Part shown: positions 2,807 to 64,000 of the stretch, in pieces
Position numbering within the stretch: position 1 is the stretch's first letter
Layout of the letters: each line of letters begins with the position of its first letter
Source of the DNA: an uncultured Erysipelotrichaceae bacterium
GTDB lineage: Bacteria; Bacillota_I; Bacilli_A; RF39; UBA660
NCBI GenBank assembly: GCA_902794075.1
Contig: CADBGE010000001.1
Location: 76,603-140,602 of the forward strand
Length of the DNA stretch: 64,000 nt
Reading direction: 5' to 3'
Position numbers and translations under genes: made by a program
The notes under the pieces: generated by a model
Databases searched by the model: none
Told to the model about the DNA's origin: nothing
Seen by the model: the letters and a program-made list of their open reading frames with translations, nothing else

Positions 2807-3544
2807 TTAATCTCCTGTCCAATGACCTCCAGCACCTCTATAATATTCTTTACTTATTCTTTGGCCAAATTCGTATCTTTCTTTTTCCAATTTATCTTCA
2901 GTCTCATCATCAAATACTGGGAAAATATCAAATACAGTAGCATCCCACCTATTTGTGAATGAATTAGTTGCTACAACAATTTTTTTAAGTTTATTATATG
3001 TTGTGTCAGGATATTTTTTTAATGTGTCAATGATATCATTTAAAATATCTATCATTCGGTCTTCCTTAATGTTTGAACTATAAGAATGACCTGTTAAATC
3101 ACCATGCCAACAATACGATAATTTTAATTTATCTGGTTTAACTGATGCATCAATTGGGATAAATTTATTCCATGGATTATTGTCAAATTCATCAGAACTT
3201 TTCTTTAACTTATCGTTAAGCCATTCTTGTTGTTTTTCTGGAGATCTTTTAAGAATTCCTGGTTTACTTTCCTTATATTTTAACCAATGTTCCTCAGCTT
3301 TCTTTAATGCAGCTTCTTTTCTTGCTTGACGTTTATCTGTTTGCGTTTTATTATATTCTTCTATAATAGAAACACGAGCAATTAAGAATTTTGACCATGA
3401 TTCCAAGATACCTTCATTTATCTTTTTCTTGATTTTTTCTGATGAATCATTTATATTAATATCTATAGAATTAATGCATATTCTACCGAAATTTTCAATA
3501 TAATCTTTTTTCCATTCATTTATATATTGAACAAGTGATTTCAT
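2807..3544 (-). CDS. hypothetical protein with MKSL-type N-terminal leader
   Basis: 245 aa. Starts MKSLVQYINE. No recognisable domain. Confidence 0.7.
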   Translation of the reverse strand: MKSLVQYINEWKKDYIENFGRICINSIDININDSSEKIKKKINEGILESWSKFLIARVSIIEEYNKTQTDKRQARKEAALKKAEEHWLKYKESKPGILKRSPEKQQEWLNDKLKKSSDEFDNNPWNKFIPIDASVKPDKLKLSYCWHGDLTGHSYSSNIKEDRMIDILNDIIDTLKKYPDTTYNKLKKIVVATNSFTNRWDATVFDIFPVFDDETEDKLEKERYEFGQRISKEYYRGAGGHWTGD

Positions 3545-10474: not shown

Positions 10475-11221
10475 TCATCCGTTGTACCAATCTGGTGTGT
10501 TTGTTATACCTGAACCGTCAAACATTCGTCCTGTAGCATAAATACTAGATAAATCCCATTTAGATAAATCTCCAACTGATTTTAAGTTTGTACAACAACG
10601 AAACATGGCTGAAATATCTTCAGCATTAGATACATCCCATTTAGATAAATCTCCAACTGATTTTAACTCTTCACAGAAATCAAACATACCGTACATATAT
10701 CTAACTTTTAATACTTTCCATTTTGATAAATCACCTACTGATTCTAATTTATAACAGTTACGAAACATAGTTGAGATATCTTCAACACCTGATACATCCC
10801 AATCAGATAAATCTCCAACTGATTTTAAATTAATGCATTTTTCAAACATTCTAGTTAAAACTTCAGCATTTTGTGTATCCCAATTTGATAAGTCCACAGA
10901 TTTTAATTTTGTGCAGTTTAAAAACATATTGTGCATATTTTTAATGTTTGATACATCCCAGCCAGATACATCTATGTATTCAAAGTTAGTTCCTTGAAAT
11001 ACTCCATAACTACGTTTTTCATCATAAAATGTAGTCATTCCACTTACATCTATATCATTAAAGTAAACAGGTTTCTGTTCTGTTCCAGGTCCTAACTTAT
11101 TGTATTTATCTTCTATAATCTTTCTTAACTCATCAAATGTTTTAGGAAAATATATATATGCGTTTTTATAGTTCTTATTAATGACAAGTTTTTCAGATAA
11201 ATAGTTAACAAGTGACTTCAT
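10475..11221 (-). CDS. DUF285 / BspA-type leucine-rich repeat protein with MKSL leader
   Basis: 248 aa. Starts MKSLVNYLSEKLVINKNYK, followed by about 6 repeats of the SVGDLSxWDVSxxxDxSxMFxxCxxLK type. Confidence 0.8.
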   Translation of the reverse strand: MKSLVNYLSEKLVINKNYKNAYIYFPKTFDELRKIIEDKYNKLGPGTEQKPVYFNDIDVSGMTTFYDEKRSYGVFQGTNFEYIDVSGWDVSNIKNMHNMFLNCTKLKSVDLSNWDTQNAEVLTRMFEKCINLKSVGDLSDWDVSGVEDISTMFRNCYKLESVGDLSKWKVLKVRYMYGMFDFCEELKSVGDLSKWDVSNAEDISAMFRCCTNLKSVGDLSKWDLSSIYATGRMFDGSGITNTPDWYNG

Positions 11222-40092: not shown

Positions 40093-40707
40093 TTATTCTA
40101 TTATGAACATGTACCAATATTCCATGTATTCTTTTCCATTGTAATTGACATGCATATTAAGTTTCAATAAATTACATTTATGTTTACCTAATTGTTCTTC
40201 CCATACTGTTGCAGTGCAATTCATTTTCTGATGTATGATTCTTGATTTCCATGTATCTGTTATATCATTTATAAATTTTGGAACAATCTTATCTAATGCA
40301 TCAAAACTATCATAATTTTTCCAGCCAACTACAATGTTACCATCACAAAATCGTTCAATTACTTCATACATATCGTCAGACTTTCCAAAATTGTCTTCCC
40401 AAGGTTCAAAATAGTCTCTGACTGTAAACTCTTCTGAATCATCCCAAAGAGCAGGATCATTCTTGCCTGATTTTGCAATGTATTCAACCGTATCATACAA
40501 GTCGTCATCACTATTTATAGATTCAATTTTATCAAACACTTCATTATTATATAATTTAGTGTTTTTATTTATGACAAGTTTTTCATTCACTTGCGATGGA
40601 AATATGACAAGTTTTTCATCTACTTGTGATGGACGTATTATTAGTTTTTCATTTATTGAAATCGAAGGTTGCTTCTTATATTTTAGATATTGTTTTAATG
40701 TTTTCAT
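40093..40707 (-). CDS. hypothetical protein, leader with two FPSQV-type units
   Basis: 204 aa. Starts MKTLKQYLKYKKQPSISINEKLIIRPSQVDEKLVIFPSQVNEKLVINKN. Confidence 0.7.
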   Translation of the reverse strand: MKTLKQYLKYKKQPSISINEKLIIRPSQVDEKLVIFPSQVNEKLVINKNTKLYNNEVFDKIESINSDDDLYDTVEYIAKSGKNDPALWDDSEEFTVRDYFEPWEDNFGKSDDMYEVIERFCDGNIVVGWKNYDSFDALDKIVPKFINDITDTWKSRIIHQKMNCTATVWEEQLGKHKCNLLKLNMHVNYNGKEYMEYWYMFIIE

Positions 40708-40783
40708 TTTATTATGATTTATACATTGAGCTAAAATAATAAAAAGCTCAAAGAAATTGTCATCACCAAATAAGGCTCACGTT

Positions 40784-41416
40784 TCATATTAGTGATAACT
40801 TATTCAAAATACTTGATGGAACATAATCATCAGCATAAACATTTTCAAAATCATCATTTGAAACTTTGTCTGATCTAATTGTTCCGCATGTAAATTCTTT
40901 AACTATATCACGTCTTTCGTTAGTTAATGTAGGTAAGAATTTATCGTTTCCTTCCAACATGTTGTTCATTAATTGATTTGCGTTAACGATTTTTACAGAA
41001 TTAAAATTATGTGAATAACATACATAATAATTATTAACGTCATTTCCAAAATTGACAAGTGAACGTGCTGTTGGCGGTCCGTAAACAATTTTTCTACTGT
41101 TTGATGGTTGAGAAACTTTAATGTCAATATGAATTTCTGACTTGCCATTAGTTAATATAATATCGCCATACTGCAGATCATTTTTTGTAGAATATGTCAT
41201 ACCGTTATCCTTTAACCATTCACGTAATGTCATTGCAGTATATTCAGTATTCGCTTCATTAAAAGCTTCACACCATTTTTCTGCTTGCGTATCTGCAATA
41301 TCATATGACCTTTTTTCCATTGGATTCAATTTTGGATTCAAATTCTTAATGGTCTTCCACAAATTATTTAGACCAGAATTTGAACTTTCTTTAATATAGT
41401 TAATGAGTGATTTCAT
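40784..41416 (-). CDS. hypothetical protein with MKSL leader
   Basis: 210 aa. Starts MKSLINYIKE. A possible D...D-x-K nuclease-like pattern (GDIIL...IHIDIKVS) is only weakly supported. Confidence 0.65.
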   Translation of the reverse strand: MKSLINYIKESSNSGLNNLWKTIKNLNPKLNPMEKRSYDIADTQAEKWCEAFNEANTEYTAMTLREWLKDNGMTYSTKNDLQYGDIILTNGKSEIHIDIKVSQPSNSRKIVYGPPTARSLVNFGNDVNNYYVCYSHNFNSVKIVNANQLMNNMLEGNDKFLPTLTNERRDIVKEFTCGTIRSDKVSNDDFENVYADDYVPSSILNKLSLI

Positions 41417-41445
41417 TGTTATTACTTTTTATTTAATTATTATAT

Positions 41446-41474
41446 AATATAAAAATATTTTTCTTTAAATTTAA
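41446..41474 (-). promoter_or_regulatory. sigma-70-like promoter TTAAAT-N17-TATATT
   Basis: Minus strand: TTAAAT (41474-41469), 17 nt, TATATT (41451-41446), 29 nt upstream of ATG 41416. Confidence 0.5.
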
Positions 41475-41477
41475 AAA

Positions 41478-42536
41478 TCATTTAAAAATTTTGTCTAAAT
41501 CTTCAATGTCTCCTTCAGGCTCAACAGTTTCAATGGATATATCGTCAATGTCAGCATCAGATAAATTTACATCAGCAGGTACACAATATTTAATACCTTC
41601 AATATCTTTTTTACTGAGTTTTCTTGGTCTTTCATTCCAATAACTTTCATCAATATTTGATTCGGCAATGATTTCATTTGTCTTAGTCATAGTCTCATAT
41701 ATAAATTGTTTTTCTTTATAATTGTCCAAAGTGTAATATCTTAAAGATGTTACTGTTTTAAACATGCATTCACAATAAACACAAATTTTTTCATATGTGT
41801 TTTCTGTTACATATATTGTTGGATTAAATAGTTTATAATATTTTGTCACATAGTTAATTAGTTTATTAGAAACATTTCTTGTACAGAATAAGAATATTTC
41901 TCCTTGTCTAGGATCTTTTAATTTTTTTGCATCAAATGAAATAAATAAACCAACAACATTTTTAACATTTTTACTTTTTAACTGATCTTTTATAATTGAT
42001 TCAACGTCGAAATTTTCATTTTCTTTTGAAGCATATGTCGTTAATTCATAATCAATATTATATTTATCTTTAGCCATTTTTCTAATTTCATTGCATTTTG
42101 CCTTAAACTCTTTGCCGTGAGCTTGTTTTGGATATGTACAATCAATAGAAGTCCAAAGATGAACCATTTCATGAATTAGTGTGTCTTCATACTTTGTTAT
42201 AGACATTGGTATATTACTATTAATATATATGTATGGCTTCATATCTAAAATGTTGGTGACTTCTTTAGACGATGACTGAAAATGCATAATGTATTTTCCA
42301 TTTTTAAGTTTATTCTTAAAATATACACCAGATTCATGAAATCCTTGAACACCTAACATACTACCTTTTATTAATTTTCCATGAGTATATTGTATGTCTA
42401 TTTCTTCTGCATTAGGCAATTCATTAAAAAAATATTCAGCATTGAATTTATTATAATGTTCAATCATCCATTCAGTAGATATTTTTTCATATGATGATTC
42501 TTTTATATAATCAATTAAACTCTTCATATATGACAT
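41478..42536 (-). CDS. SprT-like zinc metalloprotease domain protein with MKSL leader
   Basis: 352 aa. Starts MSYMKSLIDYIKE (an alternative ATG at 42527 gives a canonical MKSL start). HExxH motif TLIHEMVHLW. Confidence 0.65.
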   Translation of the reverse strand: MSYMKSLIDYIKESSYEKISTEWMIEHYNKFNAEYFFNELPNAEEIDIQYTHGKLIKGSMLGVQGFHESGVYFKNKLKNGKYIMHFQSSSKEVTNILDMKPYIYINSNIPMSITKYEDTLIHEMVHLWTSIDCTYPKQAHGKEFKAKCNEIRKMAKDKYNIDYELTTYASKENENFDVESIIKDQLKSKNVKNVVGLFISFDAKKLKDPRQGEIFLFCTRNVSNKLINYVTKYYKLFNPTIYVTENTYEKICVYCECMFKTVTSLRYYTLDNYKEKQFIYETMTKTNEIIAESNIDESYWNERPRKLSKKDIEGIKYCVPADVNLSDADIDDISIETVEPEGDIEDLDKIFK

Positions 42537-47610: not shown

Positions 47611-47614
47611 ATTG

Positions 47615-47689
47615 TACTGCCAACGGGACTCGAACCCGTAATCTCCGCCGTGAAAGGGCGACGTCCTAAACCAATTAGACGATGGCAGC
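47615..47689 (-). tRNA. tRNA-Glu(TTC)
   Basis: 75 nt. Acceptor gctgcca/tggcagt (G1-U72), anticodon arm tcgcc-ctTTCac-ggcgg, T arm acggg-ttcgagt-cccgt. Confidence 0.8.
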
Positions 47690-47919
47690 ATATTGAGATT
47701 TCACAGTAATCTCAAAACTGTATACGTGAGCAATTTGATATGGAGTGTACTGCTCATTGATTCATGTTGTGATCTCAACAGTTATCTCTCCTGAATGGAA
47801 CATTATCCGGAATAATTCCAAACCATCGGACCTTACTCAGATTTGAATTACATCAGGGATCTCTCAGGAAAATTTCCGAGGCTGATTTGTATCTGCAATA
47901 AAACCAGCAAACATTTTTG

Positions 47920-47991
47920 CGCTTGTGGAGAATTACGATATCCCGACCTAGTGGTTAACAGCCACTCGCTCTACCTCTGAGCTACACAAGC
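47920..47991 (-). tRNA. tRNA-Asn(GTT) with unusual T loop
   Basis: 72 nt. Perfect acceptor gcttgtg/cacaagc, anticodon arm agtgg-ctGTTaa-ccact. T arm gggat-atcgtaa-ttctc (A at position 54, 53-61 unpaired). Confidence 0.7.
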
Positions 47992-48000
47992 ATATTTCAT

Positions 48001-48103
48001 AATCAACCGAACTTATCGTCACTTCATCGATAACATAGCACTTTGTGCCTCATTTATCATTACAAACAGAAGTTAGACTAAACAAAACGTTTAACTGTTG
48101 ATT
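48001..48103 (-). ncRNA. structured spacer module closed by a 7-bp helix
   Basis: aatcaac (48001-48007) pairs with gttgatt (48097-48103). Internal hairpin ttatcg/cgataa. Lies between tRNA-Asn and tRNA-Val. Confidence 0.25.
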
Positions 48104-48114
48104 ACGAAGTTTTG

Positions 48115-48189
48115 TGGGCAATGTTGGATTCGAACCAACGACCCCTTGCTTGTAAGGCAAGTGCTCTGAACCAGCTGAGCTAATTCCCC
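48115..48189 (-). tRNA. tRNA-Val(TAC)
   Basis: 75 nt. Acceptor ggggaat/attgccc (one G-G mismatch), anticodon arm cttgc-ctTACaa-gcaag, T arm gttgg-ttcgaat-ccaac. Confidence 0.8.
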
Positions 48190-48276
48190 AGAAAAGTGGT
48201 GTCCTAACAATTAAACGACAAATTTTAAAAAATTTGATTGAGTTCATACCCCAATATCTCCACCAAAATAATTTAC

Positions 48277-48385
48277 GAAACTGACATATTGAAATTCTGT
48301 GCAGTAAACCATGAATTGTAATTTAGTACGTTCTACTAAGTGCACCAATTATTCTAAGGTTAATTTCAACTTAGGTATCAGTTTC
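48277..48385 (-). ncRNA. structured spacer module closed by an 8-bp helix
   Basis: gaaactga (48277-48284) pairs with tcagtttc (48378-48385). A nested 8-bp helix ttgaaatt/aatttcaa and the hairpin tagta-cgttc-tacta are also present. Confidence 0.3.
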
Positions 48386-48386
48386 T

Positions 48387-48504
48387 AAATGAGAATAAAC
48401 AATACTTACGAATTGCCACCAATAAGCATCGTATAAAGAAATAAGGGAGTCTATAAGGAGGCAATTTTCTCTGCTTATACTTGCCTTTCATTCTATTCTC
48501 ATTT
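48387..48504 (-). ncRNA. structured spacer module closed by a 10-bp helix, pseudoknot-like interior
   Basis: aaatgagaat (48387-48396) pairs with attctcattt (48495-48504). Inside, aattgcc...ataagca...ggcaatt...tgcttat are interleaved 7-bp complements. Confidence 0.3.
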
Positions 48505-48506
48505 TG

Positions 48507-48595
48507 CGGAAGCTGAGGGATTCGAACCCCCGGAACCTTGTTAAGGCTCGCCGGTTTTCAAGACCGGTGCAATCGACCAACTCTGCCAAACTTCC
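48507..48595 (-). tRNA. tRNA-Ser(TGA), class II
   Basis: 89 nt. Acceptor ggaagtt/agcttcc, anticodon arm ccggt-ctTGAaa-accgg, long variable arm, T arm ggggg-ttcgaat-ccctc. Close to E. coli tRNA-Ser(UGA). Confidence 0.85.
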
Positions 48596-48911
48596 GTAAT
48601 ATTAAATAATATAAAAATAAGTGTGTTGTTAAACCAAAAAATCCATAGTGTTCTTATGAACGTATGTGATCTTGACCAGAACAACTAAGGCCATTATATC
48701 ACATTACTCAGGTTCCGCCTGAACTGTTCCTGCAACCTCTTTCACTATTTGTCATGGATTTGATTTCAGCTACTTGAGACAGTTCTGATACTTTCAGACA
48801 TAGTTACAATTTACTCTTTAAAAGATGGACACTTTCAATCCCACTTCCTTATTTATATTATCGTATTCAGTATTTCCAACATGTCAAAGAACTTTGTTTT
48901 GTTGTTTTTAT
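48596..48911 (-). ncRNA. promoter-proximal leader RNA upstream of tRNA-Ser (paralogue of 50467..50720)
   Basis: No credible ORF here. Shares the 15-mer ccaacatgtcaaaga (48876-48890), ttgtcatggattt (48749-48761) and gcaacctc (48732-48739), in the same order, with the 50.5-50.7 kb segment. Preceded by a consensus promoter. Confidence 0.35.
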
Positions 48912-48917
48912 ATAATC

Positions 48918-48946
48918 AATATATAAATGATTATATGAAAATTCAA
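48918..48946 (-). promoter_or_regulatory. sigma-70-like promoter TTGAAT-N17-TATATT
   Basis: Minus strand: TTGAAT (48946-48941), 17 nt, TATATT (48923-48918). Drives the leader RNA / tRNA-Ser sub-cluster. Confidence 0.55.
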
Positions 48947-49004
48947 ACTTTTTTAATTTTTTGCACCCGAAGTGAAACTCGTCATCTCAGCAAAATATTT
49001 TAAG

Positions 49005-49079
49005 TGGACCCAGAGGGTCATGATCCCCCGACCTTGACATTATGAGTGTCCTGCTCTATACCAACTGAGCTATGGGTCC
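49005..49079 (-). tRNA. tRNA with CAT anticodon (Met or Ile2), unusual T loop
   Basis: 75 nt. Perfect acceptor ggaccca/tgggtcc, anticodon arm ggaca-ctCATaa-tgtca (27-43 mismatch), T arm ggggg-atcatga-ccctc (A at position 54). Confidence 0.65.
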
Positions 49080-49960
49080 TATTTCATTTTTCTACCTTTT
49101 ATCCAACCGTTGTTAATATAATCATTAAGTTCTTCTTTTTTAATTTTTATATTAATTGGTTTATTATTTTCATCAAATTTATAAATCCAGCATGTCCCGT
49201 ATTGTGAATTATTTTTACCCTTACCGTGATTTATTAATTTATATGTTTCTTTTTGTTTTTTAATTGATTCAGGTTTATGTTTTCTTCCAGTCCATATACA
49301 TTTTAATTCTCCAGATAAATATCTTGGATCATCAACTGAAACAGAATAATAATTTCCGTTTTTATCTTTTACAGATACTTTATTTTTTCCTAAAGCAATA
49401 TATTCACCAGATATATATCTTGGATCATCAACTGAAACAGAATAATAATTTCCATTTTTATCTTTTACTGTTATTTTGTTTTTTGTTAAAGCTTCATAAA
49501 TTTCTTTGTTATATTCTTCCTTTTTTATCATCAAATGTTCTCCTGTTGATTTTATTTTTACAGGAATTAAACCTTTTGTTGATGGTGTGTATTCACCGCT
49601 CATATATTTTGGATCATTTTTTGAACATCTAAAATAGTTTCCGTCTTTATCTTTTACAGGCACAGAACCATACGTATTCCATCCTTTTCCGCCACATTGA
49701 ATATTATAACATTCAGGATCATGAACTAAATCTTCTGTAACAATTTCAGATTCATATTGATATGCCTCATTTATAGTATTAAAATATTTTAATATTTCTT
49801 TACTAAAGTTTTCAATACCATATTTCTTATATGCATATTTTAATCTTGTGCCTGAACCCATATATCCATCATCTAAATTATCTGTACAATGTACACCATA
49901 ATAAAAATGATTATTTATATTATTTGTTATTTTATAGAAATAATTGTATTTTCTTTTCAT
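49079..49960 (-). CDS. GIY-YIG homing endonuclease (Seg-like), second copy
   Basis: The track ORF starts at TTG 49969. The ATG at 49960 gives MKRKYNYFYKITNNINNHFYYGVHCT...GYMGSG...YGIENF. The TAG stop abuts the tRNA 5' end. C-terminal repeats KDKNGNYYSVSVDDPRY(I/L)SGE. Confidence 0.8.
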   Translation of the reverse strand: MKRKYNYFYKITNNINNHFYYGVHCTDNLDDGYMGSGTRLKYAYKKYGIENFSKEILKYFNTINEAYQYESEIVTEDLVHDPECYNIQCGGKGWNTYGSVPVKDKDGNYFRCSKNDPKYMSGEYTPSTKGLIPVKIKSTGEHLMIKKEEYNKEIYEALTKNKITVKDKNGNYYSVSVDDPRYISGEYIALGKNKVSVKDKNGNYYSVSVDDPRYLSGELKCIWTGRKHKPESIKKQKETYKLINHGKGKNNSQYGTCWIYKFDENNKPINIKIKKEELNDYINNGWIKGRKMK

Positions 49961-50032
49961 AATGTTCAATGATATTTTATATATATTTATATTGAACTAT
50001 ATAATTAAAAATAATAAATTATTTCTAATTAG

Positions 50033-50106
50033 TAGGGATGATGGGTACTGCCCCCACTATCTCGAATTTATAAGATTCGCGCTTCTACTGTCTAAGCTAC
50101 ATCCCA
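50033..50106 (-). tRNA. tRNA-Ile(TAT) with aberrant T loop
   Basis: 74 nt. Anticodon arm cgaat-ctTATaa-attcg, acceptor gggatg/catccc (6 bp plus a terminal U-U). T arm gtggg-GGCAGTA-cccat, and the D loop agacagtag lacks GG. Confidence 0.6.
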
Positions 50107-50113
50107 ATGTTTG

Positions 50114-50187
50114 TGGAGCCATGGGGAGTCGAACCCCAGACCTTCTGCGTGCAAAGCAGACGCTCTACCAAACTGAGCTATGACCCC
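50114..50187 (-). tRNA. tRNA-Ala(TGC)
   Basis: 74 nt. Acceptor ggggtca/tggctcc with G3:U70, anticodon arm tctgc-ttTGCac-gcaga, T arm tgggg-ttcgact-cccca. Confidence 0.85.
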
Positions 50188-50190
50188 ATA

Positions 50191-50382
50191 AAAGTAAAAT
50201 GTTCTACACGCTCTGACTTTCACAGATACCCTCTAAAGATTTTAAAATCTCCCTTTAGCAAGGATTCCTTACCAAATATACAGATGCAACTCTGCCCCTT
50301 GCTTCCGCTCCATCACAGGCATACTTTATCAGCAGACGGTAAGATCTCTAATAAATTTCCTGTACCTCGAACTATTTACTTT
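50191..50382 (-). ncRNA. structured spacer module (about 190 nt) closed by an 8-bp helix
   Basis: aaagtaaa (50191-50198) pairs with tttacttt (50375-50382). Internal palindrome agattttaaaatct flanked by ctaaag/ctttag. Lies between tRNA-Leu(TAG) and tRNA-Ala. Confidence 0.3.
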
Positions 50383-50385
50383 TTG

Positions 50386-50466
50386 TACCCCATCTCCGAC
50401 TCGAACGGAGACCCAGTAAAGGATGGCTTCTAAGGCCACTGACTATACCAATTCGTCTAATGGGGT
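50386..50466 (-). tRNA. tRNA-Leu(TAG), class II
   Basis: 81 nt. Acceptor accccat/atggggt, anticodon arm gtggc-ctTAGaa-gccat, 12-nt variable arm, T arm ctccg-ttcgagt-cggag. Confidence 0.8.
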
Positions 50467-51046: not shown

Positions 51047-51349
51047 TTAAAATCCTTCATCTCTTAACCATTCCTTTGCATGACGAACGATAAGTGCATC
51101 AATATCGCGACGATCACTAGCATTTTTATACTTATGCTCAAGCCATTCGAGACCATCATAATCATATAAGAAGTTCTCAAGGAAGTCTTCAATGTCATCG
51201 CCATCAGCAAGAGACATAACAACGGTCTCTACCCATTCCTTACCGTCTGTTTCATAATTTGAATCAAGAACATCCATATATACTTCATATAAATATTCGA
51301 GATCATCTTGACTTATGGATTCATTGATGTATTCTATTAAACTTTTCAT
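51047..51349 (-). CDS. small acidic protein with MKSL leader
   Basis: 100 aa. Starts MKSLIEYINE. Very Asp/Glu-rich. Confidence 0.65.
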   Translation of the reverse strand: MKSLIEYINESISQDDLEYLYEVYMDVLDSNYETDGKEWVETVVMSLADGDDIEDFLENFLYDYDGLEWLEHKYKNASDRRDIDALIVRHAKEWLRDEGF

Positions 51350-51417
51350 AATAAACTGTTTTTTATATATTAAAAATAAACTGTTTTTTTTTGCTTATAT
51401 ATTAAAAATAACAATTT

Positions 51418-52425: not shown

Positions 52426-52806
52426 TTAAAAACAAGGATCTCTATAATTATCTGCAGAACCAAATCTTACTGAGCAAGTTTCCCAGAGTCCAGAACCCTT
52501 TGGAAGCCATCGACCATTCTTGCGAAGAGTATATTCAGTACCTTGATAGTATGATCCGAAGTTTTTGTACTTCTTAATTGCTTCCTCACCATCAAAATGC
52601 TCCGGATCTTTAATGTATGCTTCATAATCAGTATCATGCATATAAGTAACGATAACTTTCTTTGGAGATTTTACTTCAAGAACAATCATTGCATATCTAT
52701 CAGATCCAACGAACATTGTTGCTGGCATTCCAACTTTCGGAGTCTCATTAGCACGAGTATTCATTACTTCATTGATGCAAGCATGAGAAATAGAAGAAAC
52801 TGTCAT
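52426..52806 (-). CDS. hypothetical protein
   Basis: 126 aa, ATG start. Confidence 0.6.
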   Translation of the reverse strand: MTVSSISHACINEVMNTRANETPKVGMPATMFVGSDRYAMIVLEVKSPKKVIVTYMHDTDYEAYIKDPEHFDGEEAIKKYKNFGSYYQGTEYTLRKNGRWLPKGSGLWETCSVRFGSADNYRDPCF

Positions 52807-52879: not shown

Positions 52880-53194
52880 TTATGCAGTTTTTGACCTAAA
52901 CCAAGGACGTTTTGACTTAAGATATTTATTAGCGAGTTCATTAATATATTCAACATCTTCGTGAATATTCAAAGTTGAATCATTAACCACAAAAGTTCCA
53001 TCAGTTGGTTCTTTGTAAGAATCTTTACGATTATCCTCATTAAATGTTGCCAAATCACGATCCTCATCAATTGTCATTTCTCGGCAAATTTCACGATTTT
53101 GGCGGCGAGTCTTTCGATTACGATCACGGTAAAATTCCGTGTTTGTTCCGCCACAATGACCAATTCGGATGTTCTTACGATAAGTCTTACCCAT
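52880..53194 (-). CDS. hypothetical basic protein
   Basis: 104 aa with an Arg/Lys-rich N-terminal half (RKNIRIGHCGG...RDRNRKTRRQNRE). Confidence 0.6.
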   Translation of the reverse strand: MGKTYRKNIRIGHCGGTNTEFYRDRNRKTRRQNREICREMTIDEDRDLATFNEDNRKDSYKEPTDGTFVVNDSTLNIHEDVEYINELANKYLKSKRPWFRSKTA

Positions 53195-53239
53195 AATTTG
53201 TTTTAATTAAAAGTTATTATAATTAAAAATTACAATTAT

Positions 53240-53268
53240 AAAATATAAAGATATCCCAAAAAATTCAA
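53240..53268 (-). promoter_or_regulatory. sigma-70-like promoter variant TTGAAT-N17-TATTTT
   Basis: Minus strand: TTGAAT (53268-53263), 17 nt, TATTTT (53245-53240). Confidence 0.4.
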
Positions 53269-53277
53269 AGAATTGGA

Positions 53278-53808
53278 TTATTTTTTTCCTAAGAACAGAT
53301 CATAATATTCATCATTGCCAATAACGATAATAATGAATTCATCAGTTTCATCATATTCAAAAGCATATCCATTCATATCATTAAATTCTAACTGTTTTAA
53401 TTCTATATTCTTATTAATCATTTCATCGAATGCTTTTGAAATGAATTCATTTTTTCCATTAACTTCAATCATATACGTTTCATTACATTGCTTCAATAAA
53501 CGTATAGTTTCAATAGCATTTTTTATTTCTGAAAGTTTGTGCCCAAACGCTGATGTAATGTCTGCAGCTTCAACAAATGCATTATCTGGGCTAATTTGTG
53601 TGTATATTAGACCACCTTTTCTTTCGTCTATCGACCGCCATATTTTTGATAATATTTCATTAAGATCATCTGAAGAATTTTTATAGTTCTTATTAATGAC
53701 AAGTTTTTCATCCACTTGTGATGGAAATATGACAAGTTTTTCATTTAAATATTCATTTAAAGAATAAAGATCTTTCACATGTGAAATATATTTACTTAAT
53801 GATATCAT
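53278..53808 (-). CDS. hypothetical protein, doubled leader plus one FPSQV unit
   Basis: 176 aa. Starts MISLSKYISHVKDLYSLNEYLNEKLVIFPSQVDEKLVINKNYK. Confidence 0.7.
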   Translation of the reverse strand: MISLSKYISHVKDLYSLNEYLNEKLVIFPSQVDEKLVINKNYKNSSDDLNEILSKIWRSIDERKGGLIYTQISPDNAFVEAADITSAFGHKLSEIKNAIETIRLLKQCNETYMIEVNGKNEFISKAFDEMINKNIELKQLEFNDMNGYAFEYDETDEFIIIVIGNDEYYDLFLGKK

Positions 53809-53907
53809 CTATTTATTATATATTATATTTACAGATATAATCTAGAAACGTTACTTCAAAAATTAAAAGAATTGGATTATTTTTTCTATTTTTTAGGATG
53901 TAGAAAT

Positions 53908-54405
53908 CTATTTTTTACGATGTAAAAATATATGATATCTTCTAGTCAGCTTACCAAAAAACAGCATATCATATTTTTCGGTTGACAACCATTCTACATT
54001 AATGTCGAATGACGGAGTTTCTTTTATCAAGACTTTTATATGTATGTTAGCTTTTTCAAAATCATCAAGCATATCATTAACATGTTCTGATCTTAAAAAA
54101 TTTAAAATTGGATATTTTGAATTACTCTCATACATTGATTTTATTTTGTTCCGTATGTCATTAATGACATTTCTATCTGGAGCTTTTCCATACAAATTTG
54201 CATTATTGCAGAATATTTCCCATGCTGTTTTAAACTTTGCTATCGGGCATCCAAATTTCATTATGCTGCTTAACTTTTCATCTTTGTTGTCCCATAGGTT
54301 TTTGTCAATTATATCGTCTATTGTATCGTCATCTGGATTTCCAACTTGAACAAAGTTCTTGTTAATGACTAGTTTTTCAGTCAAATATTTATTTAATGAT
54401 TTCAT
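53908..54405 (-). CDS. hypothetical protein with MKSL leader
   Basis: 165 aa. Starts MKSLNKYLTEKLVINKNF. Confidence 0.7.
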   Translation of the reverse strand: MKSLNKYLTEKLVINKNFVQVGNPDDDTIDDIIDKNLWDNKDEKLSSIMKFGCPIAKFKTAWEIFCNNANLYGKAPDRNVINDIRNKIKSMYESNSKYPILNFLRSEHVNDMLDDFEKANIHIKVLIKETPSFDINVEWLSTEKYDMLFFGKLTRRYHIFLHRKK

Positions 54406-54424
54406 AATTCACATAATGTTAAAT

Positions 54425-54964
54425 TTAAGCTTTTGACATCCAGAATGCATATATTTCATCAGTCATTGAATCACATACAGCAAACAGTGTATATTTATTA
54501 TTTGAGCAGCCTTTAAGTATGGCGTCTTTGACATTTGAGCCAAGAGCAATGTTCAATTCATCATATATAGCATTTTTATTTGATGAATATTCAGTAAATA
54601 TTTTGTTGATTATCTTATATGATTCTTTACTTATTGTGTCTTGTTTTTCTATTTGTACCCACATAGCATATTCATCACTATTGTCGGCTATATCAAGAAT
54701 CTTTGTTAGAAAATTGTCTTCAATGTATGATTGTATATGCTTAACATCTACATTTGAATTGATGTATCTTTTACTTACATATAAATATATTGTGTATGCT
54801 AAATTTTTTGCAATGACAGATGATTTTCCTGAATTTGAATAATAATATGTAAGTTCATCAGAGAACTTGTATAGCTTCTCAAGCAGTTCGTCACAATCGT
54901 CTGGAGATTTGTAGTTCTTGTTTACTAATAGTTTTTCAGTAAGATATGCGTTTAATGACTTCAT
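54425..54964 (-). CDS. hypothetical protein with MKSL leader
   Basis: 179 aa. Starts MKSLNAYLTEKLLVNKNYK. Confidence 0.7.
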   Translation of the reverse strand: MKSLNAYLTEKLLVNKNYKSPDDCDELLEKLYKFSDELTYYYSNSGKSSVIAKNLAYTIYLYVSKRYINSNVDVKHIQSYIEDNFLTKILDIADNSDEYAMWVQIEKQDTISKESYKIINKIFTEYSSNKNAIYDELNIALGSNVKDAILKGCSNNKYTLFAVCDSMTDEIYAFWMSKA

Positions 54965-54970
54965 AATTTA

Positions 54971-55438
54971 CTAAATAAATATGTATATAAGAGTATGTTC
55001 TTTTCCTATCACTTTATTTTTCATTATCCATACGATTACATAATTTCCATCATCTCTTTCAAACTTAGCTAACGAATCATAATCGTTCCAATTTATAGGT
55101 CTATGGTCATCGTCACTTTCAAAATTGATATATTCCTCAGGTATGTAGTTTCTTAAGTCTTTAGGAAATATTTTACCAACACTTTTTTCATAATCATCTT
55201 CTTTTGTTATGTCACAAAAACAGTATTCAAATGTATTACGATTCATATCTTTAAACAAATCATTTACTTTATCTGATTTTTTATTCATAGTCGATTCATT
55301 TATTGTGTCTATAATATTTTTACATGACTCTTCTCCAGTTATATGAACATCGTGTGGAATAAATAATTTGCTACCAACATTTTTATAATTTTTATTAATA
55401 ACTAATTTTTCATTTATGTAACTACTTAATGACTTCAT
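54971..55438 (-). CDS. hypothetical protein with MKSL leader
   Basis: 155 aa. Starts MKSLSSYINEKLVINKNYK. Confidence 0.7.
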   Translation of the reverse strand: MKSLSSYINEKLVINKNYKNVGSKLFIPHDVHITGEESCKNIIDTINESTMNKKSDKVNDLFKDMNRNTFEYCFCDITKEDDYEKSVGKIFPKDLRNYIPEEYINFESDDDHRPINWNDYDSLAKFERDDGNYVIVWIMKNKVIGKEHTLIYIFI

Positions 55439-55441
55439 ATA

Positions 55442-56020
55442 TTATGAATTATCTTCAATGAATTTTTTAATTTTTTCAATGTCCTTTTCGGATAAATTTA
55501 ACGAATATGACATCTCTGAATCTACTCCATCTAAATTATCTATATATTCATATGTAAAAATGTTAAATAATTTATCGATATATGCTGGTGTATATTCTTT
55601 AAAACTAGTCAAATTGTCAAATGCATTTATATTCCTCTTCATATGAGATACTGGAATAAATACATAATATGATCCACAATTATTATTTATTGACTCCTTT
55701 GTTGCTACAAGTTGATTATTAGTATCATATTTTACATCTATTGCCCAGTTTCCAAATCCTGTAACAGATGATCCTTCTAAATGTTGTTCACCATATTTGT
55801 TTGGTTCTCCTAATTCATCAAGTGATATACCAATTATACTTAAATAAGCGTTTGGCTTAGAATTTGGGCTATATATAAATACTAATAAATTTTGAAAATG
55901 ATTATAATCTTCTGACGAAATTGATACATCTTTGAAGTTCTTATTAATTACAAGCTTTTCATCTACTTGTGATGGAAATATGACAAGTTTTTCATCTATG
56001 TAGCGTTTTAATGATTTCAT
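55442..56020 (-). CDS. hypothetical protein, leader plus one FPSQV unit
   Basis: 192 aa. Starts MKSLKRYIDEKLVIFPSQVDEKLVINKNFK. Confidence 0.7.
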   Translation of the reverse strand: MKSLKRYIDEKLVIFPSQVDEKLVINKNFKDVSISSEDYNHFQNLLVFIYSPNSKPNAYLSIIGISLDELGEPNKYGEQHLEGSSVTGFGNWAIDVKYDTNNQLVATKESINNNCGSYYVFIPVSHMKRNINAFDNLTSFKEYTPAYIDKLFNIFTYEYIDNLDGVDSEMSYSLNLSEKDIEKIKKFIEDNS

Positions 56021-56118
56021 AAATTATAAGAATAAAAAAATTATATATTAAAAATAAAGGAATCCTACTATCACGAGTAAGATTCTCATAAAATTGTTCT
56101 TCTATTTAAATGTATTTA

Positions 56119-57480
56119 CTACACACCGAACATATTTGGATCTCTTCTGTTTACCTTCATATCTATTCCTTTCTTGTCTTCATATTTAAATCCTTCAAGC
56201 TGTGCAATACGATTAAATATAAGATTATTTAGAAAGCTTCCGTCAATGAATTCTGGCTTAATAAGGTCAAAGCATTCATTAAGTAGTGCAACATATTTAT
56301 CGGAATTTGCATCAAGTTCTCTCATCTTTGCTATCATATCATCAACATCCTTTAGATATAGGTACTCTGGGAAATTCAGTAGATGATCCTTGTCGTAATC
56401 AGGATGTAAGAACGGAAGAAGACCCATTGTGATCATTTCGTATGGCTTGATGGTGATAAAACCGGGAATCTGTGAATAGACAAGAGTATAGCGAGCATCA
56501 CCCATTTCATCCTTCAAGTCTTCAATCATAATTTCCTTAATTCTGTCCGTCTTTTCATAAACCCATTTATCCCACCTACCATAAATCATTGTCTTGTCAT
56601 ATTCAGTTCCTTCAAGTCCGTTGATGATCCATTTCTCATATTCGGGATATCTACATGAATTATTTCCATTATGATTAATACGTCCTGTTCCACAACCGTT
56701 ACTAAGAACAATAAGATGCTTCGAAGGATCTGACTTAAGCTTCCTGTCAATATCAATCTTATCACGGAAATCATCAAGAACACCCATCATACAAATTTTT
56801 TCAGTATGCATATATTCAGTTGGAACCTTTGTACCATGAATCATTGTATGATTGTTCCAAGAGGTAATATGATAATGCGTTTCAAATTCACCATTTGTCT
56901 GTGATAATATAAGTTTAGGATTATTGTATAAATCAGTTGCATTTACTGTAATATATCTTGGATCTTCTGAAATGACATATACAGGAACATCACTCATTTG
57001 GTCCATGACATAAATATATGGAGCCCCATATTTTGCAAAACAAAGAAGTTGTTTCTTATATTCACCATTCTTTAATTTTAAGAATTTTTCAATATTTCCA
57101 TTACCGCTGATAATACCATTGAAAAACAACATAAAATCAGGTATAATTTCTCTATCCTTAAACCAATCAACAATTGGCTTATAATCATGGCATGTATGTT
57201 CCTTAATCTTTGAATATTCTACGCAATTTGCAGAAAGTACATTATGATTTGGGAAAATCTTATCATATTCCTCATCAGTTAATTTATTTAAATGATTTGG
57301 CCCAATAAAATAAAACATAAAGTCAGGATTCATTCTTGCAATAAATGCATAAAAAATAATAGGAGCATCATCACCTGTACCTACTTTTATATTCTTAATC
57401 TTTACGGACTTACCCATCTTTCCAATAAGAATATGTTTCTTAAAATCCTTTGGGTTAAAATTATAAAACTTATCTGTCAT
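56119..57480 (-). CDS. glycosyltransferase, T4 DNA beta-glucosyltransferase-like (tentative)
   Basis: 453 aa. By recollection of T4 Bgt: the N-terminal ILIGKMGKSVKIKN..PIIFYAFIARM resembles IAIINMGNNVINFK..TIYLFKVISEM. The C-terminal MIYGRW, FITIKPYEMITMGLLPFLHPDYD and DDMIAKMRELD resemble VIYGGS, FITLRVWETMASDAVMLIDEEFD and AELIDRVNELK. Confidence 0.45.
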   Translation of the reverse strand: MTDKFYNFNPKDFKKHILIGKMGKSVKIKNIKVGTGDDAPIIFYAFIARMNPDFMFYFIGPNHLNKLTDEEYDKIFPNHNVLSANCVEYSKIKEHTCHDYKPIVDWFKDREIIPDFMLFFNGIISGNGNIEKFLKLKNGEYKKQLLCFAKYGAPYIYVMDQMSDVPVYVISEDPRYITVNATDLYNNPKLILSQTNGEFETHYHITSWNNHTMIHGTKVPTEYMHTEKICMMGVLDDFRDKIDIDRKLKSDPSKHLIVLSNGCGTGRINHNGNNSCRYPEYEKWIINGLEGTEYDKTMIYGRWDKWVYEKTDRIKEIMIEDLKDEMGDARYTLVYSQIPGFITIKPYEMITMGLLPFLHPDYDKDHLLNFPEYLYLKDVDDMIAKMRELDANSDKYVALLNECFDLIKPEFIDGSFLNNLIFNRIAQLEGFKYEDKKGIDMKVNRRDPNMFGV

Positions 57481-61467: not shown

Positions 61468-62112
61468 TTACATGTTAGAACATCCATGTAACATATTATA
61501 TGTTTTTGCGGATGACACAATGTTCCATTTATTTAAATCAAAATTTAATTCATAACAAAACATAAACATTCCAGTAAAATCTTTTCCATTCTTTACGTCC
61601 CACTTACTTAAGTCGCAATTGAATTTTTTACATCCATAAAACATGCAAGAAAAATCTTCTCCATTCTTTACGTCCCACTTACTTAAGTCACAATTGAATT
61701 TCTGACAATTAAAAAACATACTTTTAAAATTATTGCCGCCACTTACATTCCAATCACTAATGTCAAATCCTTTACGTCCTACATTTTTGTCTTCAAAAAA
61801 CAAATCACTAAAATCATCTATTTCTGAAACATCAATGTCATTTAAATCATATATATCTTTGTCATAATGTTCTTTTATAATGTCTTTTAGTTCATCTTTA
61901 TTTTTAGGATGATAATTATACATTTTATAGTTCTTATTAATTACAAGCTTTTCATCTACTTGTGATGGAAATATTACAAGCTTTTCGTCTACTTGTGATG
62001 GAAATATTACAAGCTTTTCATCTACTTGTGATGGAAATATGACAAGCTTTTCATCTACTTGTGATGGAAATATGACAAGTTTTTCATGTATATACTTATT
62101 TAATGATTTCAT
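61468..62112 (-). CDS. DUF285 / BspA-type LRR protein, leader with four tandem FPSQVD units
   Basis: 214 aa. Starts MKSLNKYIHE(KLVIFPSQVDE)x4 KLVINKNYK. Contains repeats such as FDISDWNVSGGNNFKSMFFNCQKFNCDLSKWDVKNG. Confidence 0.8.
   Translation of the reverse strand: MKSLNKYIHEKLVIFPSQVDEKLVIFPSQVDEKLVIFPSQVDEKLVIFPSQVDEKLVINKNYKMYNYHPKNKDELKDIIKEHYDKDIYDLNDIDVSEIDDFSDLFFEDKNVGRKGFDISDWNVSGGNNFKSMFFNCQKFNCDLSKWDVKNGEDFSCMFYGCKKFNCDLSKWDVKNGKDFTGMFMFCYELNFDLNKWNIVSSAKTYNMLHGCSNM
61943..62087. repeat. 33-bp tandem repeat, 4 full copies plus a partial one (coding)
   Basis: Units acaagcttttc(a/g)tctacttgtgatggaaatat(t/g) at 61943-61975, 61976-62008, 62009-62041 and 62042-62074, plus a partial unit to about 62087. 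Each encodes EKLVIFPSQVD on the minus strand. Confidence 0.9.
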
Positions 62113-62672
62113 TTTAATTTGTCTATTATTTTATCATAATCTGATTTTGACGGATTATCTGTTCCTACAACATAATCGTTATCAACTATTGTTTTAAACA
62201 ACGTTATAAAGTCATCAATTGGCATTTTATAACAGTTTCTTATTTCCCAGCCTTCAACAGATGAATGGGTACCCTGATCATATACAGCTTTAACTATTAT
62301 TAAATTATCATTAACTGGATATATTGATAATTCAATAATTTTATTTTCATCTAATACACTCTTATGAAATGTTATTGTATTATCAAAATTTGATACTGTA
62401 ATAACAACTAAACCTTCATCTAAATACTTGTTGACATCGCCATTAATAGATGCGTATTTTTGTTTTATATTTTTTTCAACTGACTTCAATAGATTTTTAT
62501 ATGCACTGTTATTAAGTTCAAGACGATATCCCCATATCATACCATTACGTTTCAATTCACTCATTTCTCCATCAGTAATCAATCTAATAATATTATCAAG
62601 TTCATTGTCGGTATTCTTGAAGTTTTTATTGATGATTAATCTTTCATTCAAATATGTCATGAGTCTTTTCAT
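62109..62672 (-). CDS. hypothetical protein with MKRL leader variant
   Basis: The track ORF starts at TTG 62684. The ATG at 62672 gives MKRLMTYLNERLIINKNFK. ATGA overlaps at both ends link it to its neighbours. Confidence 0.7.
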   Translation of the reverse strand: MKRLMTYLNERLIINKNFKNTDNELDNIIRLITDGEMSELKRNGMIWGYRLELNNSAYKNLLKSVEKNIKQKYASINGDVNKYLDEGLVVITVSNFDNTITFHKSVLDENKIIELSIYPVNDNLIIVKAVYDQGTHSSVEGWEIRNCYKMPIDDFITLFKTIVDNDYVVGTDNPSKSDYDKIIDKLK

Positions 62673-63277
62673 TCTTTGTACCAATATGGTGTATTTTTTA
62701 TTCCTGAGTGTGCAAACATACCGCGCATATTTTCACATTCTGAAACGTTCCAATTTGATAAGTCACCTACAAATTTTAAATTTATACAGTCATAAAACAT
62801 GCTGTTCATATTTTCAACTTTTGAAACATCCCAATCTGATAAATCTCCAATTGATATTAACTTGTTGCACCATGCAAACATACCGCGCATATTTTCAACT
62901 TTTGAAACATCCCAATTAGATAAGTCTCCCGCTGATTCCAAATTTTCACAGTGATAAAACATATATTCCATGTGTTCAACATTTGAAACATCCCAATCTG
63001 ATATGTCAATATATTCAAATTTTGTTACATCAAATATTCCTACAGTTCCATCATAAAATGAATCAATGTTACTTACATCTACATCGTTAAAGTCAATAGG
63101 ATTCTTCTCTGTACCAGGTCCTTGTTCTTTATATCGTTGTTCTATAATCTTTCTTAACTCTTTAAATGATTTTGGAGCACATGTATATAAGTTGTAATTT
63201 TTATTAATGATTAGCTTTTCATCAAATCGCTGATTGATGATTAATCTTTCATTCAAATATGTCGTGAGTCTTTTCAT
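62669..63277 (-). CDS. DUF285 / BspA-type LRR protein with MKRL leader variant
   Basis: The ATG at 63277 gives MKRLTTYLNERLIINQRFDEKLIINKNYN. Contains repeats such as IDISDWDVSNVEHMEYMFYHCENLESAGDLSNWDVSKVENM. Ends YWYKE. Confidence 0.8.
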   Translation of the reverse strand: MKRLTTYLNERLIINQRFDEKLIINKNYNLYTCAPKSFKELRKIIEQRYKEQGPGTEKNPIDFNDVDVSNIDSFYDGTVGIFDVTKFEYIDISDWDVSNVEHMEYMFYHCENLESAGDLSNWDVSKVENMRGMFAWCNKLISIGDLSDWDVSKVENMNSMFYDCINLKFVGDLSNWNVSECENMRGMFAHSGIKNTPYWYKE

Positions 63278-64000
63278 TCTTTGTACCAATCTGGTATATT
63301 TGTTATTCCTGAATCTTTAAACATATCATCCGTAAACATAACATTTGAAACATCCCATTTAGATAAATCTCCTACTGATTTTAAGTTTATGCATCCATAA
63401 AACATGCATGACATATTTTCACATTTTGAAACATTCCATTTTGATAAATCTCCAATTGATTTTAATTTTTCGCATCCGCTAAACATTTCTACTGTATCTT
63501 CAACACTTGAAACATCCCATTTAGATAAATTTCCAACAGATTCTAATTTATAACAATTACGAAACATATAACTAATATCTTCAACACTAGATACATCCCA
63601 TTTAGATAAATTTCCAATTGTGTTTAAATTATAACATCCATAAAACATATAACTAATATCTTTAACATTTGAAACATTCCATTTTGATAAGTAACCAACC
63701 GATTTTAAATTGTGACAATCAAAAAACACCCCAAACATATTTTCAACACTTGAAACATCCCATCTTGATATGTCAATGTATTCAAACTCAATTTCTTCAA
63801 ATGCGCCTCTATTATTATAAGAAACAAGTGTTTTTAATTTACTAACATCAACATCATTAAAGTCAATAGGTTTCTGTTTTGTCCCAGGTCCTTGTTCTTT
63901 GTATCGTTGTTCTATGATCTTTCTTAACTCTTCAAATGTTGATGGATCACAGGTATATGGATTATTATAATTTTTATTTATAACCAACTTTTCATTCAAA
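63274..64000 (-). CDS. DUF285 / BspA-type LRR protein, 5'-partial (start beyond window end)
   Basis: The reading frame is open to the window edge. The first visible residues, (L)NEKLVINKNYN, are the distal part of the leader. At least 6 LRR units follow. Ends DWYKE, with the stop overlapping the next ATG. Confidence 0.8.
   Translation of the reverse strand, partial: LNEKLVINKNYNNPYTCDPSTFEELRKIIEQRYKEQGPGTKQKPIDFNDVDVSKLKTLVSYNNRGAFEEIEFEYIDISRWDVSSVENMFGVFFDCHNLKSVGYLSKWNVSNVKDISYMFYGCYNLNTIGNLSKWDVSSVEDISYMFRNCYKLESVGNLSKWDVSSVEDTVEMFSGCEKLKSIGDLSKWNVSKCENMSCMFYGCINLKSVGDLSKWDVSNVMFTDDMFKDSGITNIPDWYKE

Follow-up and report, generated by a model that had tools for sequence, protein, structure and literature searches.

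A bipartite N-terminal leader on exchangeable small proteins of a Lak-like megaphage as a candidate capsid-targeting tag

The closest described counterparts of the genes considered here are found in T-even phages. The T4 internal proteins Ip1-3 share only a leader of about 10 residues, MKTYQEFIAE, which targets them to the prohead core and is removed by gp21 (PMC8442874, PMC3012670, PMC12373910), and T-even internal proteins in general have only this N-terminal packaging leader in common and are encoded in variable loci (PMC12373910, PMC2839356). Proteases of the T4 type cleave C-terminal to Glu; in giant phages, head propeptides are carried by diverged paralogues with identical N-termini and contain several x-x-Glu protease sites, the multiplicity of which is thought to give small fragments that can be cleared (PMC5694885). 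In the hyperplastic regions of T4-type phages, promoter-stem-loop (PeSL) cassettes are known, where short conserved boundary sequences mediate the insertion, deletion and replacement of small genes (PMC2839356, PMC4122927). Here we describe five consecutive small genes, cassettes A to E, from a stretch of 64,000 nucleotides (hereafter the window; positions 76,603 to 140,602 of GenBank contig CADBGE010000001.1, deposited as DNA of an uncultured Erysipelotrichaceae bacterium). The window, which has 29% G+C, comes from a metagenomic contig of 400,026 bp (ENA ERZ27280413), and its source is an uncultivated Lak-like rumen megaphage. The five genes begin with a common peptide leader that is followed by mostly unrelated bodies, and this leader may work in the way the capsid-targeting sequence (CTS) of T4 does.

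As an earlier note on this DNA had reported, the five open reading frames (ORFs) are co-oriented and closely spaced. All are on the minus strand, in the order A (55442..56020, 192 residues), B (54971..55438, 155 residues), C (54425..54964, 179 residues), D (53908..54405, 165 residues) and E (53278..53808, 176 residues), with intergenic gaps of 3, 6, 19 and 99 nt. Their N-termini read MKSLKRYIDEKLVIFPSQVDEKLVINKNFK in A, MKSLSSYINEKLVINKNYK in B, MKSLNAYLTEKLLVNKNYK in C, MKSLNKYLTEKLVINKNFV in D and MISLSKYISHVKDLYSLNEYLNEKLVIFPSQVDEKLVINKNYK in E, and the corresponding leaders are encoded at 55937-56020, 55388-55438, 54914-54964 (the variant with EKLLVNKN), 54355-54405 and 53686-53808. The leader is indeed shared by all five genes, but it is not the same in each of them: A and E contain an additional 11-residue unit, EKLVIFPSQVD (a 33-nt unit at 55961-55993 in A; 53710-53742 in E), and E, which begins with MISL, has a leader of 41 residues. 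At the DNA level, a repeat search returned the leaders of D, C and B as repeats of 64 nt with 69-80% identity and those of E and A as a repeat of 87 nt with 84% identity.

The leader is composed of two modules. Module 1 follows the pattern M-K-[STN]-L-x-x-[YHF]-[IL]-x-E and module 2 the pattern K-L-[VI]-[VI]-N-K-[ND]-[YF]-K. Between them there is either nothing or one to four tandem units of 10-12 residues, the observed ones being EKLVIFPSQVD, EKLIVFHPQVD, EKLIISPSHVS, EKLVINSPSWVS and EKLIINQRFD; alternatively, the modules are joined by linkers of the form ..ISHVKDLHSLNEY[IL]N- or ..IKANKLPLISLS-. All 107 unit starts of the type K/R-L-hydrophobic-hydrophobic have Glu as the preceding residue (P1) and I, V, L, F or M at P3, across at least six linker contexts, and Glu is present at position 10 in 93 of 127 leaders. 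Within the window genome, the invariant leader residues are each encoded by two to four synonymous codons, Leu by CTA, CTT, TTA and TTG and Val by all four of its codons. Such variety at invariant positions means that selection acts on the peptide and not on DNA or RNA, i.e., the leader is under selection as a peptide. By inspection, the leader has no features of Sec or lipoprotein signals, since there is no hydrophobic run and no Cys in what is an amphipathic and charged sequence, and a secretion signal was ruled out because the leader does not have a hydrophobic core.

The bodies of A to E are mostly unrelated to each other or to anything known, except for a C-terminal region that D and E have in common. 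There is no mutual BLASTP similarity between them (best E 0.38). When alignments of the body families were made from orthologues and compared pairwise by hhalign, nine of the ten pairs had a probability of less than 2%, and only the D-E pair gave 72.5% (E 3e-5), over some 53 C-terminal columns that correspond to about 55 residues, the C-terminal third. The earlier note had called the bodies unrelated, which is correct apart from this region, and the profile and structure searches that it had proposed gave no sign, outside this region, that the bodies are simple paralogues. The two AlphaFold2 models obtained, those of B (pLDDT, the predicted local distance difference test, 53.7; pTM, the predicted template modelling score, 0.53) and D (pLDDT 37.3), are too poor to decide the matter, and B to E may still have a fold in common. 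Scans of A to E against Pfam and PHROG assigned no family, including no match to PF03382 (the DUF285/BspA leucine-rich-repeat, or LRR, family) above the gathering score, and Foldseek searches of PDB and BFVD with the low-confidence models of B and D returned nothing at E<1e-3. Orthologues of B are 55-88% identical, the body of E is part of a six-member family present at other loci, and the isoelectric points (pI) of the five proteins range from 4.5 to 7.1.

The spread of the leader beyond the five genes had been overlooked in the earlier note. In a six-frame scan it was found on about 22 of the 54 genes of the window, 13 of which have the full form and 9 a short form that consists of the first ten leader residues only. 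Six or seven of the other full-leader bodies in the window are DUF285/BspA-type LRR paralogues; g62112 and g11221 (genes are named here by their start positions) match DUF285 (PF03382) at E 1e-44 to 1e-46. Metagenomes were searched with a degenerate DNA pattern for EKL[VI]INK[ND][YF], which had three sites on one IMG/VR contig and at least 120 metagenome loci, and about 30 of those listed are true leader loci, often with 3-7 leader genes in a row. Combined with the window, these loci gave a census of 128 distinct leader proteins, the bodies of which form 76 BLASTP clusters (57 singletons), the largest being DUF285 with 22 members. Only about ten of the 104 census members that are not DUF285 proteins have Pfam matches, to Nudix (n=2), NDK, HAD, SprT-like, AAA and DUF3175 (n=2); one census leader protein matched Prophage_tail, and which member it was could not be traced in two follow-up scans. 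The full-leader proteins are small and uniform in size (median 183 residues, interquartile range 171-200). When 1.84 billion cluster representatives (clustered at 50% identity) were searched with a 28-position profile of the leader, 224 matched at E<=1e-3, nearly all of them aligned from residue 1 and most 150-200 residues long; the sharing of the leader is far beyond chance.

The leader appears to be confined to a particular group of phages. The leader pattern in its N-terminal context was found in none of 185,579 species-representative genomes, where 50 chance matches were seen; the 50,697 phage records, Lak genomes included, gave no match to the leader in tblastn, and the leader motif strings have no occurrence in the literature text searched. 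A second Lak-like clade (410-kb IMGVR_UViG_2799112330_000002; L199, L222-L233), with a topoisomerase II that is 57% identical, has a leader variant, MKKLNQFITE-KFRLSKDNL, on at least 45 ORFs in the 122 kb sampled, and DUF285 LRR paralogues make up 42 of these ORFs, a multigene family that is unusually large by phage standards. The NDK orthologues of both clades (L060 3231-3635; L226, an ORF from 1112) carry the short leader as an N-terminal extension of about 14 residues ahead of the enzyme core. It follows that the tag has been added to a known fold and made uniform in each phage lineage, as would be the case with a single phage-encoded partner as its reader.

The earlier note had anticipated that in related phages the cassettes would be gained, lost or swapped with breakpoints at the leader, and this is what the comparison revealed. 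The variable locus is bounded by two anchors, a 453-residue gene upstream (56119..57480, minus), which is kept in all haplotypes, and a conserved 126-residue gene downstream (52426..52806, minus). Between them, six gene orders were found: A-B-C-D-E as in the window (eight contigs), B-C-E (L005-L008, four samples), C-A-D-E (L136), B-A.. (L137), B'-C-A-X-E (L138) and B.. (L009-L012). The haplotype junctions, as located by blastn, fall within leaders. In L009 the start of B aligns to the leader of A of the window (56020-55986) and also to that of B, and the deletion of D in L005 begins 13 nt inside the leader of D and extends to module 2 in that of E. Cassette A is missing in L005-L012 and takes different slots in L136, L137 and L138; cassette D is missing in L005-L008 and L138, and in L136 has an extra EKLVIIPSQVN unit; orthologues of C are present in L005, L136 (a long leader variant) and L138. 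Leader variants reassort among bodies. The leader of A is plain in L137, has an ISH..LNEY insert in L136 and L138 and the FPSQVD unit in the window, while the orthologues of A (P0007-P0016) are mostly 181 residues long, that is, without the 11-residue unit; the leader variant of E differs in L005, L136 and L138. Scars of recombination were detected by repeat search, Tandem Repeats Finder (TRF) and blastn between D and E (53813..53933, minus), namely a 73-nt copy of the 3' flank of E (53813-53885, matching 53214-53286) and a 22-nt tandem duplication across the stop codon of D (53885-53933).

Synonymous divergence (dS) and the ratio of nonsynonymous to synonymous substitution rates (dN/dS) were calculated by the Nei-Gojobori method for the same genome pairs in anchors and cassettes. 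The anchor genes have dS of 1.1-1.7 and dN/dS of 0.04-0.12 (0.04-0.06 in the 453-residue gene), and the cassettes dS of 0.23-0.64 and dN/dS of 0.2-0.63, so that relative to the flanking genes dS in the cassettes is 3-4-fold lower and dN/dS about 5-fold higher. The lower dS means that the cassettes were exchanged more recently than the backbones diverged, and the higher dN/dS that their proteins evolve faster. Taken with the junctions, this makes it very probable that the leader has a second role, as the stretch of homology by which related phages insert, delete, reorder and swap cassettes. The idea of a constant 5' cassette with swapped cargo put forward in the earlier note is thus supported as far as swapping is concerned and has to be amended with respect to the cassette, since the tag is bipartite, variable in length and genome-wide rather than specific to this locus.

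What would the peptide be selected for? The reading that we favour, at a probability of roughly 0.45, is that the leader works like the T4 CTS, a proposal that draws on sequence and on analogy. The leader would bind the assembling prohead core, and a phage S77 (T4 gp21-type) prohead protease would then cut after the hydrophobic-x-Glu triplets that precede each K-L unit, with repeated units giving multiple cuts and hence small clearable fragments. The bodies, which are small and evolve fast, would be retained in the head and delivered into the host along with the DNA, where they would probably act as counter-defence or take-over factors. The pattern of module 1 agrees with the T4 CTS and with the N-terminus of gp24 (MAKINELLRE) in length, in hydrophobic residues at positions 4, 7 and 8 and in Glu at position 10. 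The leader ends in a hydrophobic-x-Glu motif of the kind expected, as a sequence motif, for a prohead protease site, and Glu in the P1 position at all 107 sites fits the rule that proteases of the T4 type cut after this residue.

A protease of the required type is encoded by relatives of the phage. Lak-C1 has a 584-residue protein with a Peptidase_S77 domain (Pfam E 9e-15; tblastn to T4 gp21 E 2e-7). Close to the N-terminus of this protein there is a conserved L-T-L-N-E site, which is also present in a homologue with 38% identity over the entire length and 47% in the protease domain. S77 protease loci are present on 19 Lak-like IMG/VR contigs. The proteins flanking the Lak S77 gene begin with M.K.I..L[LM]E-SLFD[DE], with Glu at position 10, and this N-terminus may be the counterpart, in Lak phages proper, of a head-targeting leader; proteins of this kind are encoded at L140 19821-21206 and 29349-30047 (Lak-C1) and at L144 5952-7427. 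It can also be mentioned that the S77 domain of Lak-C1 (L140 23996-25750) is fused to a long, very acidic C-terminal region rich in Ser and Asp and in this resembles a protease-scaffold fusion.

Several observations weigh against this reading. When all fetched loci were searched by tblastn with T4 head proteins and the Lak-C1 protease, only Lak-C1 itself matched; no protease gene was found in those parts of the contig of the window and of the leader-bearing contigs that could be fetched, and at the 19 Lak-like protease/head-module loci there are no leader genes within 10 kb. The full-leader bodies have a median pI of 5.2 and 82% of them are acidic (below pI 6), whereas the T4 internal proteins are highly basic (PMC8442874). 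The nine residues that follow the putative cut, KLVINKNYK, show the same degree of conservation as those before it, and with module 2 conserved a simple removable propeptide is not a sufficient explanation. The tag is carried by about 40% of the window genes, more than is expected for a list of head cargo, and its short form is found on enzymes, namely NDK, Nudix, a HAD phosphatase and an AAA ATPase. Lastly, the resemblance to the T4 CTS spans only 10 residues and could be due to convergence, and we infer packaging and cleavage for tagged proteins that are known here from their sequences. Since the protease was not reached in the searches, the bodies are acidic, module 2 is conserved and the tag is abundant on enzymes, other explanations keep some weight.

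The first of them is that the leader is not cleaved at all and serves as a docking or anchor peptide, by which many interchangeable protein modules (LRR binders and others) would be fixed to one common site on the virion exterior (tail, fibres or capsid) or to another phage hub protein, in which case the cassettes would be swappable adhesins or accessory subunits. The largest body family, DUF285/BspA LRR, has a surface-adhesin-like fold and at least 42 paralogues in one genome, leader genes flank tail-fibre genes and have the same promoter-like motif, and the conservation of module 2 past the putative cut, together with its covariation by clade, fits a retained binding peptide, for which the tandem units could provide a stalk of adjustable length. 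An anchor would give no obvious role to the strict hydrophobic-x-Glu triplet before every unit, and it is hard to reconcile with the short form on NDK, Nudix, HAD and SprT-like enzymes. In addition, the anchor domains of phages with multiple receptor-binding proteins are about 100 residues long, not 17. On balance we regard an anchor as unlikely.

The presence of the short form on nucleotide-metabolism enzymes, the high abundance of the tag and its clade-wise variation could also be accounted for by an intracellular tag of another kind that is read by a phage factor, such as the address of a compartment or metabolon, an AAA+ degron or a nascent-peptide tuner of translation. The window encodes an AAA+ ATPase (4139-5332) that weakly resembles ATP-dependent proteases. 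Genes for import or for the formation of a compartment were not identified, the ligase, topoisomerase II and RNA ligase of the window are untagged, and the repeated hydrophobic-x-Glu units and the small, uniform full-leader proteins would be left unexplained, all of which makes this a rather unlikely solution.

We find still less to recommend deep paralogy, by which the small leader proteins, A to E included, would descend from one ancestral protein of about 180 residues whose N-terminus is the most constrained part, with no capture of cargo. The C-terminal region common to D and E, the narrow length distribution and a similar strand-turn-strand motif that, by eye, ends B, C, D and E are what such descent would leave behind, and the low-confidence AlphaFold2 models of B and D both suggest a helical N-terminal half followed by 3-4 C-terminal strands. 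However, the full leader is found on DUF285 LRR proteins and the short form on NDK, Nudix, HAD and SprT-like folds, and a leader fused to unrelated folds makes modular attachment certain; the hhalign probabilities in nine of ten pairs, the 76 body clusters among 128 proteins and the reassortment of leader and body between genomes point the same way. Finally, a role of the leader as DNA only, as homology for gene conversion or recombination or as a translation-initiation region with no peptide function, is very improbable and largely excluded by the codon analysis, because, even though indel junctions lie within the leader and leaders are DNA repeats at 69-84% identity, invariant residues have up to four synonymous codons in one genome, the amino-acid pattern is kept between clades whose DNA cannot be aligned, and the leader is without exception in frame and placed at residue 1.

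If the capsid-targeting reading is extended to the whole system, the leader would be a clade-specific tag, processed by an S77 protease at hydrophobic-x-Glu|Lys-Leu sites, that pre-loads the capsid with an exchangeable injected arsenal of more than 200 families. We put this forward tentatively, as a possibility with a smaller chance of being correct in full. The arsenal would then consist of LRR binders, of enzymes of the Nudix, NDK and SprT-like kinds and of a large number of ORFans. With recombination taking place inside the tag, it would be a plug-and-play cassette system, and the sequence of an uncultivated giant phage would be enough to tell which proteins are injected.

The leader genes outside the array are distributed over the entire window. 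Full-leader genes, those of the array included, start at 63999 (cut by the window end), 63277, 62672, 62112, 56020, 55438, 54964, 54405, 53808, 40707, 34876, 33653 and 11221, and short-leader genes at 60747(+), 51349, 45857, 42527, 41416, 39545, 34168, 30027(+) and 3544. The leader gene at 61468..62112 (minus) encodes a DUF285 protein and contains a 33-bp array of 4.5 copies at 61940-62087 (TRF); three more full-leader genes, two of them DUF285, lie in 62109..63999 (minus). In 40093..42527 (minus) there are g40707, with the full leader and 2.5 units of 33 bp at 40570-40653 (TRF), and two short-leader genes, g41416 and g42527, the latter encoding a SprT-like metalloprotease. Directly downstream of a tail-fibre gene (34973-37753), the segment 33018..34876 (minus) includes g34876, g33653 (DUF285) and the short-leader g34168. 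Another leader and DUF285 protein is encoded at 10475..11221 (minus) and has an exact promoter-like motif at 11245-11259. The short-leader gene at 51047..51349 (minus), of 100 residues, is preceded by two promoter-like motifs at 51364-51410; its body is very acidic (pI 4.05, net charge -18), with a composition like that of DNA-mimic anti-restriction proteins. The short-leader gene g3544 (2807..3544, minus) encodes a protein of 245 residues with a weak, sub-threshold match to the Pfam vRNAP_dom (virion RNA polymerase domain; E 0.0014).

At the upstream edge of the array, a terminator-like hairpin (56060-56085, minus) is followed by the promoter-like motif TATTTTTAATATATA (56042-56056, minus), 21 nt upstream of the start codon of A. 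The motif family, TTATTTTTAAT[TA]ATA, has 11 matches against 0.85 expected and is located upstream of cassette A, of other leader genes and of tail-fibre genes, which hints at co-expression of the leader genes with structural genes. At the downstream edge, a basic 104-residue ORF without leader (52880-53194, minus) has its own promoter-like motif at 53218-53232 and is missing in L005, L136 and L138, indicating a further indel at the edge of the array.

The window also encodes an NAD-dependent ligase, topoisomerase II subunits, an RNA ligase, tail-fibre proteins, two giant ORFs, 15-17 tRNAs and a transfer-messenger RNA (tmRNA). The nearest complete genomes are those of Prevotella Lak megaphages, with 52-54% identity in the topoisomerase II large subunit, and related contigs come from ruminant gut metagenomes. 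When the locus was compared at the DNA level with the 50,697 phage records, only a tRNA matched, and hence no deposited phage is close in DNA; a search for related loci in IMG/VR with the 453-residue anchor protein gave no match. The phage tmRNA (39652-40035, minus; Rfam 118.8 bits; tag GEDTFALAA) adjoins the array of 15-17 tRNA genes (43537-50466, minus), among which HNH/homing-endonuclease ORFs (43920-45035 and 49079-49969) are scattered. The topoisomerase II subunit genes (8627-10051 and 13247-15163, minus) are not adjacent to each other; between them lie a homing-endonuclease ORF (12107-13231), a small ORF and g11221, the gene with leader and DUF285. The giant ORFs, within 15536-29339 (plus), encode proteins of 1779 residues (tail-fibre PHROGs) and 2794 residues (no Pfam match).

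Several features of these genes are new: the architecture of the tag, which is bipartite and can be expanded by tandem units; its scale, with about 40% of local genes and more than 200 families; its presence on a massively expanded LRR family and on enzymes; and its occurrence in Lak-like megaphages. No comparable tag system was found in one Lak phage paper, in deposited phage genomes or in the literature text searched. Phages of the Lak type have not been cultivated, and for most of their genes no role has been assigned; the tag marks a large subset of genes that evolve fast and are often exchanged. It thus provides a testable handle on proteins that are carried into the cell or displayed, and with its help hundreds of candidates for counter-defence or host binding can be picked out. 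Should the tag be a capsid-targeting signal, phages of Bacteroidota could also be loaded with cargo by means of it.

How, then, does this locus compare with the systems described to date? The five array genes do not belong to the DUF285/BspA LRR family (PF03382), to which other leader genes do belong; cellular DUF285 members carry signal peptides or lipoboxes, and in cultured phages (Vibrio, Aeromonas) the DUF285 homologues occur as domains of giant proteins that have no leader. The cargo peptides of encapsulins and bacterial microcompartments illustrate that a short terminal peptide suffices to address unrelated cargo to a shell, but they have no sequence relation to the leader, and neither removal by a protease nor exchange of cassettes is part of these systems. 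With the PeSL cassettes the locus shares a hairpin and a promoter-like motif before cassette A. The two elements are found at the upstream edge of the array only and are absent between A and D, where gaps of 3-19 nt leave no room for them, and membership in the PeSL class was ruled out on this ground; the recombining homology here is the coding leader and not an intergenic regulatory element. The propeptides of head and ejection proteins of giant phages (SPN3US gp53/gp54, phiKZ gp93, 201phi2-1) are similar to the leader in their identical N-termini with several protease sites, but most of them are longer than 100 residues, have A, S or G rather than I, L or V at P3 and are restricted to a handful of proteins, and no cassette shuffling has been described for them.

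The comparison with the CTS and the internal-protein (ip) loci of T-even phages (T4 IPI/II/III, Alt, gp24), which the earlier note had also drawn, is apt as far as organisation is concerned, and by analogy the function may be the same. In both cases a leader of about 10 residues is present on small, otherwise unrelated proteins, the loci are hypervariable between relatives, the leader ends in hydrophobic-x-Glu and an S77 protease is encoded, here by relatives of the phage. Unlike the T-even leaders, the one described here has a conserved second module, KLVINKNYK, after the Glu, and tandem units of 10-12 residues in variable copy number; its bodies are acidic and so do not share the basic character of T-even cargo, and LRR proteins and enzymes are among them. 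T4 has 3 such proteins and about 30 variants are known from the T-evens, whereas here each genome has tagged genes by the dozen, and the families number more than 200. The shuffling of cassettes through a coding sequence is comparable to that of the T-even ip loci but takes place on a much larger scale.

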